DNA of 22,932 nt from a virus (IMGVR_UViG_2690316152_000015:1-22932), one strand, 5' to 3'. Numbered from the stretch's first letter, positions 4,064 to 8,999 are shown. Notes: generated by a model from the letters alone, not told the origin. Program-made: numbers and translations.

Positions 4064-4537
4064 TCATCCGGCAGTGAAGATTTCCTGTTTCAGCGGAGCA
4101 CCATCAACAGCGAAGGTAAACTCTTTAGTCACCACTTCTTCATCGCCACCGTTCATAGCAACTTTAGAGATGAAGCCGTTGAAAGCGGTGCGAATACCAG
4201 TCTGTTTTGCTGCATCTACATAGTATTCAATCTTAATCTGAATACGAGTACCGTCTTCGGCAGCTTTAATGAGCTTCTCGTGTACCGCATCGCCTGGGAT
4301 GTAGTTAACGGTCAGAGTCAGATCAGGAACGTTCAGTTTACCTACCAGCTTACGGTTATACTGAGAAGAGAAGGATTTAACTTCTACAGTGCCGCGCTCG
4401 ATACCAGTTTCAGGAAAACCAGCACACTCTTTAATTTCTTCGTAGCTTTCATGATCGAGAGCGGTGTTAGTGGTATCGGCGTGATAGAACATACTTACCA
4501 GACCACCAGTAAAAATATCTTTAAATTGCTGAGACAT
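4064..4537 (-). CDS. Tail tube (major tail) protein
   Basis: 157-aa ORF with AAGGGG Shine-Dalgarno, immediately upstream of the chaperone and tape measure genes; paralogous to the N-terminal half of the 277-aa ORF at 8166-8999 (shared DIFTG, LTLT, KA.ED motifs). Confidence 0.6.
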   Translation of the reverse strand: MSQQFKDIFTGGLVSMFYHADTTNTALDHESYEEIKECAGFPETGIERGTVEVKSFSSQYNRKLVGKLNVPDLTLTVNYIPGDAVHEKLIKAAEDGTRIQIKIEYYVDAAKQTGIRTAFNGFISKVAMNGGDEEVVTKEFTFAVDGAPLKQEIFTAG

Positions 4538-4565
4538 AGAATTACCCCTTAATTAAAATTGTTTA

Positions 4566-4588
4566 TAACGGGGGAACTAGTCCCCCGA
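4566..4588 (-). other. GC-clamp stem-loop between fiber and tail-tube genes
   Basis: CGGGGGA-ACTAG-UCCCCCG, 7-bp stem; only weakly U-rich downstream on the minus strand. Confidence 0.35.
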
Positions 4589-4594
4589 CTTTTA

Positions 4595-7500
4595 TTATTT
4601 AGTTGCTTTCAGTTCGGCAATCTCTTTCTGTAATGCTTCGATCTGCGCTTTATATTTGGCGTCCATTTCCTGCATTGCTTTGATGATTAAAGCATTGACA
4701 GCAGAGTTAGAAATAGTCTTGATTGCTTCCGGTTGTTCTGGATCTTCGGTAGATTGAATACCTACTGCTTCCGGCAATACTTTTTCCAGATCCTGAGCAA
4801 TAATACCTACTTCGCGTTTAATCACTGTGTCATCGGAAAGAGATTTAACTTTATCGTAAGAGTATACTTTCAGGGAGTTTACTTTCTCTAATGCACCGTC
4901 CTGTAATTCTTCCTTGTTAATTTTCAGACGGGAGTCAGAGCGAATGTAAACATCGTTAAAGCTACCGTTGCGACCTGCGGTAAAATCACCAGATGCGGCA
5001 AAATCAAAGTTGGCATCATGTACATGCATACGAACAACAGTATTAGCAACACTACCACCAGAGGCATGTACACCCATTGCTGCAAGATGGTATTTTCCTT
5101 GATGGGTTGCTCGCCAAATGTTATGTGCTGAGTTTTCGGATTGTTGACAATCAACCTGCAAACCAGTACCGCGATCTCTCCATTGAGTCCACGCGCCACC
5201 GCCTACAGCACCACGAATCAAACCAGCACCGTTACCGACCGTGCCCGTTTCAAGGTGAATCATCTTACCAGCGAATTTCCAGACTTCGGCTTGTTTTTCA
5301 CCGCGCATACGCATAACGCCAGCATCATCACAGTACAACAGACCCAACTCTAAGCCGTTCGGATCTCTAAACCACAAATGCTTATTGCCAGTGCGCTTAA
5401 ACTCAATATCAGCACCGTTCAGAGTGATATTACCGCCTGAGTGAATTGCTTTAGGCTTAACAGTACCGTTAATGGCAAACTCGATTAATTCAGTACCTGG
5501 ACCGCCCGGACGTTGGGTATAGAAATGCCATCCGCTTTCATCCGCACATTCGAATACTTGTTTACGAGCATCAGCGCCCCACGCACGAATATTAAAGCTG
5601 GAAGTAGCTGTACCCTTACCCCATTTAATTTGACCAGCAGCTTCCAAATCACCGAAGAATTTAGTTTTAATAGCACCCGTTGCTAAAGTACGTTCAGTGG
5701 TAAAGTGAGCGCCTTTGCTATCGTCAAGTTGTAGGATATTATCACGGGCGTTATTGCTATCACCCCAATGGTTAAAACGGAAGTAATCACGAGAATTTAA
5801 TCGTCCGGCATCAAATGTTAACATTCCTTTGCCAACGTAAATGTCACCAGCAAAACGAGCGGCTTTGCTTGCACGTTCTAAGACTAATGCACCTTCGTTA
5901 CCATCACCACCCAAAGTAACATTACCGCTACCCAGGTCATAAATGAACGGTCGATAACCGTTCCACCCGCCAAAACGATCATTTTCTGCGGTCGAAAGAA
6001 GGTAAACTTTAGCACCATCATTACGCCAGAATGCACCATAGTTACCGTAAATCATACGGAATGCATCTGAGTTAGCAGAATAATATTGTCCGTTGGTATA
6101 TACAATTTTGGTTTTACCTACTGACAACGTAACTTGACCAGTATCATCTAGACGTAATGAGTTATTACCTTCCGTTAATTCGTTGACTAGCTGTAACGTG
6201 TTAGTAGTCCCATCACCATAGCCTAGATAACCTTGACGGCGGTTAGCACCGCTACGATAATCATAATATTCTAGGTAGTTACTTTGTCCGGTGCGTCGTT
6301 CCATTCGGATAGCATTATTGCCCTTAGTGAAAAGGCGAGTTACGGAAGTCCCTTGTGAATCAATTCTTAACTTCTCGTCGGCGTCGGTTGCACCAGTTGC
6401 CAAACGATATACGCTACCTTCAACAGTTTCATGCCAGATAGTTTCAACGGCTTGACTACGGAATTTACGAAGATATTTTTTAGCGCGTTCTTGTGTGTTA
6501 CTCAAACTTACAATATCGTAAGTTGCTTGCGGGTTATTATCAAAAGACAGAGTACCGCGTTTATTTTCAGTGTTAAACAAGGTAATAACACGACCTTCGT
6601 TAACACCAGTAGACGGCTTAACGAGAGTTAATTCAGGTGTATCATATACATTTAAAGTCACATCAGCACTTTTGCCATACTCTACAGTAACTTTATCGGT
6701 ATATTTGCGATATTTCACGTATACATCATAGTTATCACCAGAAGTATTGATCGCAAAGGTTTCAAATTCATTATTAGTATTTCGACGATAAGCTACAACG
6801 TTTACACCTTTCGGGTTTCCGTTACCGGAACGGATAACAATTTCTACAATATCACACTGATCAGGACTATTAACGTTATAACCATTTCCACCGAAAATAC
6901 GGATGAAAAAGCCTCGACCACCTTGTGGAATTGTTGCCGTTGCCAGTTTAAAGTAACCAGCCGCATTTTCACCAGTTGACATATGAACGGGCTTAACAAA
7001 CATCTTATCAACTTCGGCTTTGGTGTATGCGCCGATCTCGCCTGGAGTTGGCTTATCACCTTCGTGATACATTTTATAACTAAATGATTTTTGGCCTTGT
7101 CTATCGTAACCGTAAGTTTCTACGCGCGATCCAGTGTGACCATACTGGAAAGTAAATCCGCGACCGTGCTGAATACCGGAAGAATGCGGAACGTTTAGGG
7201 TTAGTTCGAGAAGCCCATCAAGACCGTTGGTACGGAAAGCACCGAAGTAGTTAAGATCTCGTGCGGTTGCATCTTCCAGATAATTAGCGGTTTTGCTTAA
7301 CAGATACCCGCCATGCTTAGTGTTGGTATTCTTCTTGATGTAAGCAGCATCGGCACTACCTTCAATAGAATCAATTCGCTGGTTAGCTGCGGCAATTGCG
7401 GCATCAGTGCTAGTCTTGTTCTGGTCTACCTTGTTGTTAATTGCGGTATGGTTGTTATTAACAGTGTTGGTTAAGTTGGTGATCTTAGTATCAGCATCTT

Positions 7501-8089: not shown

Positions 8090-8109
8090 CTAGAATCACC
8101 TCACTATAA

Positions 8110-8139
8110 AACAGGAATAAGGGAGGCGTTAACCTCCCC
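8110..8139 (-). terminator. Stem-loop and weak terminator between the tube paralog and the fiber gene
   Basis: GGGAGG-CGTTAA-CCTCCC hairpin followed on the minus strand by UUAUUCCUGUUUUAU. Confidence 0.4.
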
Positions 8140-8165
8140 GCGTCATGTTTTATTTAGGAAGTGAA

Positions 8166-8999
8166 TCAATACTCCCCGAAGTCGATCCGGTCAGTCTTAG
8201 CTACTGCGCCAATTTCGCTAGGTGTCGGTTTCTCATTAGTGGAATATACCTTGATCCATTCAGAGCGACCGTTTTCCTGAATATTTCGGACGCGTAAACG
8301 TGGTGCGCCAGAAGTATTACAGGTTAATTGCCATGCGCCATGCTCATTAGCTTGAAGGTGAATTAATGATGTGTCGGCTGAATATGGATTACCGCTAGCA
8401 GTTCCCTTGTAAGTTACGAAACGGTTTCCGGCTAAAGCATCACTATCAATCGGACCCGTGAATGGATTTACACCAGCACCCAAACCAAAATCACCCTGAC
8501 GTAAGATCCGGCCTTCGGTAGCAATACCCCTTGCCAGAATCCCGCCATCTGGTTCAAGTTTAAATTCCAGTGTTACAGCTTTGTTATCACTACCACGGGT
8601 TTTGTGTGATGTGACGTAAGCATCATAGATGACATAGTAACCAGTGTTAGCAGCACTATAGCCAGAGTTCACAACATAGAACATACGGAAGCGTAAAGGT
8701 GTTTTATCCTCTACCGCTTTCATCAACATTGCTTGATGTTCATCGTCAAGAACACGGTTTAACGTGAGTGTTGTCGGTTCCAGTCTACGATAACCAGCAA
8801 GTTTCCCCGTAGCGTCCTGATCGTACTCTTCCAGAGTTTCTATCTCTGTGGATTCGGTTAGCGTAGGGAATGCTGCGACGTTCTCAATAGAACTAAAACT
8901 AGGATCGAAAAAGTCCGGCTGGCTATCGACCATAGTAGAAACGGAGACTTCAACATGCGACCCCGTAAAAATATCTAAGTTATCATGCGTAATATTCAT
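8166..8999 (-). CDS. Tail-tube-like protein with about 120-aa C-terminal extension domain (second tube paralog)
   Basis: 277-aa ORF with AAGGGG Shine-Dalgarno; N-terminal 150 aa alignable to the 157-aa tube protein; C-terminus carries the EKPTPSEIGA motif also found twice in the fiber. Confidence 0.5.
   Translation of the reverse strand: MNITHDNLDIFTGSHVEVSVSTMVDSQPDFFDPSFSSIENVAAFPTLTESTEIETLEEYDQDATGKLAGYRRLEPTTLTLNRVLDDEHQAMLMKAVEDKTPLRFRMFYVVNSGYSAANTGYYVIYDAYVTSHKTRGSDNKAVTLEFKLEPDGGILARGIATEGRILRQGDFGLGAGVNPFTGPIDSDALAGNRFVTYKGTASGNPYSADTSLIHLQANEHGAWQLTCNTSGAPRLRVRNIQENGRSEWIKVYSTNEKPTPSEIGAVAKTDRIDFGEY

Follow-up and report, generated by a model that had tools for sequence, protein, structure and literature searches.

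A tail-tube paralog with a gp36-like end as a candidate anchor for a T-even-type fibre in lambda-like prophages

Positions 4,064 to 8,999 of a 22,932-nucleotide stretch of viral DNA (IMGVR_UViG_2690316152_000015:1-22932; we call the whole stretch the window) encode a protein of 277 amino acids (aa), a 1164-aa fibre, and a 157-aa tail tube protein. We think it likely that the 277-aa protein, which is a paralog of the tube protein, forms an anchoring ring whose gp36-like ends hold the fibre, that the 157-aa protein makes up the major part of the tube, and that the ring lies at the tail's distal end. With somewhat less assurance, we lean towards a broader view: an uncultured clade of lambda-like siphophages of about 30-36 kb, from Enterobacterales and other bacteria, would use a ring of tube paralogs whose six C-termini feed two trimeric long fibres, and these fibres would be either fused to the tube wall or plugged in via a gp36-gp37 joint.

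To our knowledge, the attachment of side fibres to flexible tails is understood in two model siphophages only. In T5, a collar protein surrounds a ring of tube paralogs (PMC10038345), and in lambda, the collar is built from the fibre's own N-terminus (PMC12617516). If the 277-aa protein works as we propose, then it would be a third and undescribed solution, and it would give T4-type receptor-binding cassettes a direct route into temperate siphophages. If confirmed, it would also be a simple and engineerable mount for T-even receptor-binding fibres on the tube of a siphophage or a tailocin, and it would explain more than 100 proteins that the sources name "tail fiber domain-containing" or "hypothetical" and whose N-terminal tube domain these names miss.

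The 277-aa protein, the fibre and their relatives

The features on which our argument rests are as follows.

8166-8999, minus strand: 277-aa anchor protein (proposed)
8511-8999, minus strand: anchor, aa 1-163 (tube-fold domain); paralogous to the 157-aa tube protein, with an N-terminal DIFTG motif in both
8472-8495, minus strand: linker motif GDFGLGAG of the anchor, aa 169-176; conserved in alignments
8169-8462, minus strand: anchor, aa 180-277 (C-terminal domain); shares homology with the C-terminal domain of RB49 gp36
4595-8089, minus strand: 1164-aa fibre, gp37 ortholog by sequence; its parts are a gp37-type N-terminus (aa 1-51), a helical or repeat insert (aa 52-261), the shaft and tip (aa 262-1161), and the S74 chaperone
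7937-8089, minus strand: fibre N-terminus of the gp37 type, MQSIQFKRTQTAGKKPTPEQLSQGEIALQLADHVIYTKD...; would be where the gp36-like C-terminus of the anchor docks
4763-4939, minus strand: Peptidase_S74 intramolecular chaperone of the fibre, aa 1051-1109; SDSRLK, a Ser-x4-Lys motif, from the translation
4064-4537, minus strand: 157-aa protein, assigned as the major tail tube protein
3383-3889, minus strand: 168-aa gp38-like tail-fibre adhesin; Pfam Gp38_N (E 3.9e-15) and phrog_1121, "tail fiber adhesin" (E 4.6e-35)

Judging by their sequences, the 277-aa and 157-aa proteins are paralogs. BLASTP aligns them at 29% identity over 161 aa (E 9e-15), which covers the whole of the 157-aa protein. Both match phrog_158, "major tail protein" (the 277-aa protein at 1.6e-8, over residues 16-154, and the 157-aa protein at E 4.3e-21), and the 157-aa protein scores 28.1 bits against Pfam Phage_TTP_11, just below the cut-off of 28.4. 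An earlier note on this DNA had described an S74-bearing fibre gene of 1164 codons that lies between the connector genes and the block of tube, chaperone, and tape-measure genes and is flanked by two tube paralogs. These matches, the open reading frames (ORFs), and the Pfam match in the fibre given below all agree with that description.

The structure of the 277-aa protein was modelled with AlphaFold2 (AF2) from 34 sequences, with a mean predicted local distance difference test score (pLDDT) of 79.6. In the model, a Gly-rich linker joins the tube domain (aa 14-163) to another beta domain (aa ~190-270); with 13 sequences the C-terminal domain was unresolved, and it was the 34-sequence alignment that resolved it. 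Taken together with the alignments, this gives a layout in which aa ~14-163 form the tail-tube domain, aa 164-185 a Gly-rich linker, and aa ~180-277 a gp36-like knob or connector. The N-terminal domain has the tube fold, that is, a beta-sandwich with a flanking helix and a long loop, which agrees with the tube-like nature that the earlier note had ascribed to the protein. There is one tube domain per chain in the model, and the nearest folds are those of ring-forming tube proteins. The tube protein is kept in full in this domain, with both its N-terminal DIFTG arm and its long loop region. In the linker, G169, D170, G172, G174, and G176 are invariant across the 277-aa family, and GD(F/Y)GVG is also found in the fused relatives that we describe below. 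The 277-aa family proper is found in Enterobacterales prophages only, and none of its members has a name. Sequence searches of PDB chains with the 277-aa and 157-aa proteins gave no match, and the NCBIfam scan gave no useful name. We also considered whether the 277-aa protein might be a tail terminator and rejected this because it is much nearer to tube proteins.

The other end of the 277-aa protein resembles gp36, the hinge connector of T-even long tail fibres. Its C-terminus reads ..KPTPSEIGAVAKTDRIDFGEY and ends in ..IDFGEY. Residues 180-277 align with residues 396-496 of gp36 from phage RB49, through the last residue (31% identity, E 1e-5, BLASTP), and RB49 gp36 is a member of phrog_16472 and phrog_1425, "hinge connector of long tail fiber." One member of the anchor family (P0079) matches the gp36 family phrog_16472 with E 7.9e-24, over positions 388-496 of 496. 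The corresponding endings are ..VQDFGYY in T4 gp36 and ..IDFGTF in RB49 gp36, and all of the gp36-type anchors, which range from 277 to 1209 aa, keep an end of the form ..(I/V/L)D(F/L/A)GxF/Y. The likeness to the gp36 connector is confined to the last ~100 residues. From these alignments we judge that the C-terminal domain of the anchor is homologous to the C-terminus of gp36, which is the natural partner of the N-terminus of gp37: in T4, the N-terminal region of gp37 is bound by trimeric gp36 (PMC3004832).

The neighbouring fibre has just such an N-terminus. Its first 51 residues are of the gp37 type (37% identity to the N-terminus of RB49 gp37, E 4e-9), and residues 262-1161 are 69% identical, over 913 aa, to gp37 of RB49, which is a T-even-like phage. 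The fibre also contains a Gp34_trimer domain (residues 648-717) and, near its C-terminus, Peptidase_S74 (Pfam PF13884, residues 1051-1109, E 8.9e-14, 52 bits against a cut-off of 22). By these comparisons, the fibre is the ortholog of RB49 gp37. The DNA identity of the fibre gene to gp37 of Krischvirus is 75-80%, and if our reading of the anchor is confirmed, this would imply that virulent T-even-like phages and temperate Escherichia coli prophages exchange host-range modules. The S74 segment reads ..YIRSDSRLKINKEE.. and the RB49 homolog has SDARLK at this place. By the precedent of the chaperone domains of endosialidase and T5 pb1, we take SDSRLK to be the Ser-x4-Lys catalytic dyad; cleavage is putative.

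Relative to RB49 gp37, the fibre has an insertion of ~210 residues after its N-terminus (aa 52-261, at 7307-7936). The insertion is rich in N, T, A, and K, contains repeated ..NKTEAANxLAxAKxELNQTITSTRDT.. segments, and has a weak match to an Apolipoprotein-type helical repeat (1.7e-4). We looked for tandem DNA repeats in the fibre gene and detected none.

The third T-even component is the 168-aa protein encoded between the tube gene and the chaperones, which by its family matches is a gp38-type adhesin. In terms of sequence, the module is the distal half-fibre of a T-even phage with its gp36 part grafted on to a tube domain. The earlier note overlooked the gp37 identity of the fibre, the gp36-like end of the anchor, and the gp38-like gene, as well as the truncation of the tape measure by an insertion sequence (IS) that we discuss below. 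The accessory gene for the fibre tip varies in place and in kind among the relatives. The lineage of the window has the 168-aa gp38-like adhesin gene after the tube gene; loci L122-L127 have a gp38 of 256-293 aa directly after the fibre gene; and loci L104-L118 are without gp38 and have three tandem paralogous ORFs of ~100 aa, with an FDIPNGW motif, between the fibre and the tube gene. Shiga toxin (Stx) phages also carry short gp38-like adhesins (45% identity).

Relatives of the 277-aa protein were sought with a profile search of 1.84 billion representative proteins, which yielded 278, and the N-terminal module was scored in the best 150. The combination of tube domain and knob is at the N-terminus of 112 of these 150. 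Just 15 of the 112 (342 to 1209 aa) have the gp36-like ..D(F/L/A)GxF/Y end. The other 97 are without this end; 91 of these reach 600 aa or more (median 942). Among 46 tube-plus-knob proteins that were sampled, 30 contain Peptidase_S74 and 8 contain Phage_tail_C_2. In many relatives, tube domain, knob, and long fibre are a single protein. Such fused forms are present in E. coli and in Leclercia, and we found no description of a fusion between a tube domain and a fibre in the literature.

Gene maps of 131 loci place both forms in the same slot. In ~70 viral contigs, mostly of 25-36 kb, the order is the capsid gene, two small genes, a fused gene for tube domain and fibre (700-1350 aa), a tube gene of ~150 aa, the chaperones, and the tape measure; the fused gene, with its tube domain, knob, and long fibre, fills exactly the slot of the 277-aa and 1164-aa genes. 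In loci of the split type, an anchor of 277-485 aa is followed by a separate fibre with a gp37-type N-terminus and then by the tube protein. Fibres with the gp37-type N-terminus are confined to loci in which the anchor ends like gp36. In every locus, exactly two small genes lie between the capsid gene and the anchor, and in all 95 of the distinct loci that were examined, the duplicate is kept alongside the tube gene. In the window, too, the fibre gene comes after the capsid gene and the pair of small neck genes and ahead of the tube, chaperone, and tape measure genes, and the same order is found in 13 E. coli chromosomes (~88% identity, at least 80% coverage) and in more than 100 viral contigs. 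The earlier note had suggested a synteny comparison, which might have found the fibre in the conventional distal place in related phages; the relatives hold it in the same slot as the window does. Because the tube domain and the fibre are fused in relatives, we reject the idea that the anchor and fibre genes lie together by coincidence.

Which of the two paralogs makes the tube? The 157-aa gene adjoins the chaperone genes, which is where the gene for the abundant subunit is expected, and the 277-aa gene does not. In the fused-type loci, the ~150-aa tube gene is the sole unfused tube gene. The outgroup phage R4C has a single tube gene, beside its chaperone gene, and lacks both anchor and fibre. 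Also, near-identical strong terminator-like hairpins follow the 157-aa gene (3933-3909) and the capsid gene (9762-9741). Because it is the sole unfused copy in the fused-type loci, is retained in the outgroup, and is followed by a capsid-type hairpin, the 157-aa protein is, as far as gene content and order can tell, the major tube protein. The ribosome binding sites of the 277-aa and 157-aa genes are equally good and do not distinguish the paralogs.

Isolated phages of this group are all but absent from the phage collection that we searched: the module was found in 1 of 50,697 phage records, that of Escherichia phage DCP80 (L083, PQ671644.1, positions 1-22,000). This is a 141-kb record filed as Gaprivervirus (Straboviridae), but its first ~25 kb are laid out like the siphophage genes of this prophage group, with a terminase, a portal, a capsid fusion, a 699-aa anchor, a 745-aa fibre, a tube protein, and a tape measure. 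It is thus probably a mixed assembly. The isolated phages nearest by capsid protein (~30% identity) are members of Cronusvirus such as R4C. An inducible E. coli lysogen would be a tractable model. One intact relative (L001) is a prophage of ~36 kb in hicB of E. coli CE0007a (NZ_CP119011, about 4,297,500-4,333,200); it encodes a large serine recombinase, a Rha regulator, a lysin of the D-Ala-D-Ala carboxypeptidase type, and a gpJ-like tip protein of 1258 aa, and it has no recognisable replication gene annotated.

Proposed assembly and alternative readings

We propose that the tail tube protein was duplicated long ago and that the 277-aa copy now serves as the base for a side fibre. The N-terminal tube domains of this copy would form one hexameric ring, stacked in register with the rings of the 157-aa protein. 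The Gly-rich linkers would let three gp36-like ends meet in a trimeric stub, which would give two stubs per ring, and each stub would join the gp37-type N-terminus of a trimeric 1164-aa fibre, much as gp36 joins gp37 in T4. The fibre would fold with the help of its own C-terminal S74 chaperone and would bear the gp38-like adhesin at its tip. The ring would most plausibly be at the tail's distal end, beside the tip complex, as in T5 and lambda. The earlier note had already suggested that the 277-aa protein might form a specialised ring that anchors the fibre. The tube fold, the gp36-like C-terminal domain, and the fusions in relatives speak for the anchoring role, and the ring itself is still a proposal.

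Several points weigh against this account. Ring formation, incorporation into the tube, and the junction between anchor and fibre are all things that we infer, and a hexamer that feeds trimeric fibres requires a symmetry mismatch. The window's own protein resembles gp36 only modestly (E 1e-5 in the pairwise comparison and 0.0024 against the PHROG profile). Furthermore, when the profile of the 277-aa family was compared with that of T4 gp36, the KPTP linker alone was aligned, so the link to gp36 rests on RB49-type gp36. Because the ribosome binding sites of the 277-aa and 157-aa genes are alike, they lend no support to a low copy number of the 277-aa protein. We did not detect co-variation between anchors and their cognate tube proteins: the cognate ranked top in 4 of 95 loci. 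This implies that the duplication is old, and it does not inform us about contacts. Finally, the phage collection that we searched contains no isolated and imaged phage of this group.

The same anchoring ring might instead be head-proximal, beneath the terminator, where it would make a collar that bears whisker-like fibres. In favour of this, the anchor and fibre genes immediately follow the neck genes and precede the tube gene. Every locus has just two small genes between the capsid gene and the anchor, which makes the neck set seem minimal, and the identification of one of them, a 133-aa protein, as the terminator is weak. The earlier note, too, had seen a resemblance to the neck-passage or collar-whisker arrangements of some siphophages of Gram-positive bacteria; the gene order does resemble them, but we saw no homology to such proteins. 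Against a head-proximal ring, the known rings of tube paralogs (p140 of T5 and gp54 of T4) and the known side-fibre collars (Stf of lambda and p132 of T5) are all distal (PMC10038345, PMC12617516), and a gp37/gp38-type fibre that started at the neck would presumably fail to reach the cell, given a tail length set by a tape measure of ~810 aa. We consider the head-proximal ring unlikely. We favour the distal position because the known rings and collars sit there and because a receptor-binding fibre must act together with the gpJ-like central tip that the intact relatives encode.

It is very improbable that the roles of the paralogs are reversed, with the 277-aa protein as the major or a co-polymerising tube subunit that bears a decoration domain, like gpV of lambda or gp17.1* of SPP1, and the 157-aa protein as a minor ring. 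In T5, it is the major tube protein that bears the decoration, and the minor paralog p140 does not (PMC10038345). Both genes in the window have the same strong Shine-Dalgarno sequence, and in some relatives the tube protein encoded beside the chaperones has 252-267 aa. However, orthologs of the 277-aa protein are fused to trimeric S74 fibres of 700-1350 aa, which would be implausible at about 200 copies per tail; the outgroup retains only the chaperone-adjacent tube gene; and the capsid-type hairpin and extension follow the 157-aa gene rather than the 277-aa gene.

We give equally little credence to the idea that the tube-like domain is outside the tube, as an adaptor on the exterior of the tail or the tip or as a platform for fibre assembly, with the fibre attached elsewhere (for example, to the gpJ-like tip): Stf of lambda and p132 of T5 do attach around the tube rather than within it, and a ring of the 277-aa protein is so far a proposal, but the whole tube protein is retained, including the DIFTG arm and the long loop, its nearest folds are ring forming, and the duplicate is retained with the tube gene in every one of the distinct loci.

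Neighbouring genes

All of the late genes of the window are on the minus strand. The remaining features, from the terminase to the window's first letter, are as follows.

15948-14044, minus strand: gpA-type large terminase
Between the terminase and the capsid fusion, minus strand: 164-aa protein, then a lambda-type portal
11909-9897, minus strand: protease/scaffold-capsid fusion
9415-9705, minus strand: 96-aa gpFII-like head-tail joining protein; Pfam Phage_attach 6.8e-5, a weak assignment
9009-9410, minus strand: ~133-aa protein, start MPRL; perhaps the tail terminator, a weak assignment
3909-4063, minus strand: post-tube segment, with a 41-codon in-frame extension past UGA (3941-4063) and a hairpin (3909-3933); homologous to the post-capsid segment 9741-9896
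2646-3337, minus strand: tail assembly chaperone pair; Pfam Phage_TAC_13, phrog_344
891-2642, minus strand: tape measure gene, truncated; phrog_13674, E 3.3e-33
1-928, plus strand: terminal part of an insertion sequence of the IS3 family; ORF 1-888 encodes the transposase (Pfam rve 1.1e-25, HTH_21 5.3e-18)

The ~133-aa neck protein may be the tail terminator. Its top match by hhalign is gpU of lambda (E 0.059, weak), and 1 of 15 members of its set matches Tail_completion_gp17 (0.0016, also weak). The chaperone pair has the usual G/GT layout: the G-like ORF has 102 aa (3029-3337), and a T-like ORF of 124 aa (2646-3020) is in the -1 frame and, from the coordinates, starts just past the stop codon of the G-like ORF.

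Homology of the tape measure gene to intact relatives ends at 929 (BLASTN against L001 and L085), which is where the IS3-family element begins. The tape measures of relatives have 784-810 aa, and ~240 C-terminal residues are missing from the window's copy or are displaced. The start of the window falls inside the insertion sequence, so that an insertion into the tape measure and a deletion look the same. Because the element interrupts the tape measure gene, the phage copy in the window is probably defective.

The segments after the capsid and tube genes are also related to each other. The capsid fusion and the 157-aa tube gene both end in UGA-A, and past this point the frame runs on for 42 and 41 sense codons, respectively, in extensions that are homologous to each other (9771-9899 for the capsid and 3941-4066 for the tube, on the minus strand). 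Both extensions are acidic and Pro-rich and then have a basic tail of the KAKATxK..RKxK type right before the hairpin. Across relatives from the E. coli clade, the frame is kept over capsid extensions of 28, 33, or 42-45 codons (20 distinct DNA variants) and over tube extensions of 36, 39, or 41 codons (12 variants). The variable sites are distributed over the three codon positions as 5/8/10 in the capsid extension and 4/5/9 in the tube extension. Where no gp38 follows the tube gene, lineages have a TAA stop and lack the extension of the tube. These patterns suggest programmed readthrough of UGA, which would produce extended minor forms of the capsid and tube proteins. Alternatively, a mobile terminator cassette would explain both extensions.

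Comparison with known systems

The closest precedent is the p140/p132/pb1 system of T5, in which a ring of tube paralogs (p140) carries the p132 collar and the pb1 fibres (PMC10038345). In both cases a duplicate of the tube protein would serve as a dedicated ring and as the platform for side fibres, and pb1, like the 1164-aa fibre, has a C-terminal S74 chaperone. But T5 has a separate Ig-like (immunoglobulin-like) protein, the p132 dodecamer, between the ring and the fibre, whereas here the connector, or in many relatives the whole fibre, is part of the proposed ring protein itself. The anchor and fibre genes have no other gene between them, and our scans of Pfam, PHROG, and NCBIfam gave no Ig-like collar protein. 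Also, T5 p140 is a trimer whose chains each contain two tube domains, whereas the 277-aa protein has one tube domain. We detected no sequence homology between the 277-aa system and p140 or p132 of T5.

The fibre itself is best compared with the gp36-gp37 fibres of T-even phages that have a gp38 of the T2/S16 type. The gp37 fibre, the C-terminus of gp36 with its DFGxY/F ending, and a gp38-like gene are all represented. Genes for gp34 and gp35 are absent from the window and from the intact relative L001, so there would be no knee and no attachment to a baseplate, and what remains of gp36 is its last ~100 residues, on a tube domain. The particle would differ as well: judging from its genes (a gpA-type terminase, a lambda-type portal, and a gpJ-like tip), it is a lambda-like siphophage, as opposed to a T-even myophage.

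The Stf collar of Ur-lambda is similar in having trimeric side fibres, flexible linkers, ring domains, and a symmetry mismatch between ring and fibre (PMC12617516). However, the lambda collar is a 12-mer of a small beta-sheet domain that lies outside the gpV/gpM junction (PMC12617516), whereas we expect the tube paralog to be a 6-mer within the tube wall. The stf gene of lambda is distal to J, while the anchor and fibre genes here are upstream of the tube gene.

Two other kinds of tail protein are alike in part. First, gpV of lambda with its Ig domain, gp17.1* of SPP1, and TpeX of lactococcal phages also consist of a tube domain with an outward-facing C-terminal extension. But these are major subunits or frameshift products, and they display small Ig, fibronectin type III (FN3), or carbohydrate-binding domains along the tail, whereas here a separate paralogous gene bears a fibre connector or a complete trimeric fibre. 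Second, the genes for neck passage and collar-whisker proteins of lactococcal and other Gram-positive siphophages have the same position, between the connector and tube genes. Pfam, PHROG, and NCBIfam scans found no similarity to neck passage or whisker proteins in our system, and those proteins bind around the connector and are not paralogs of the tube protein, as the 277-aa protein is.

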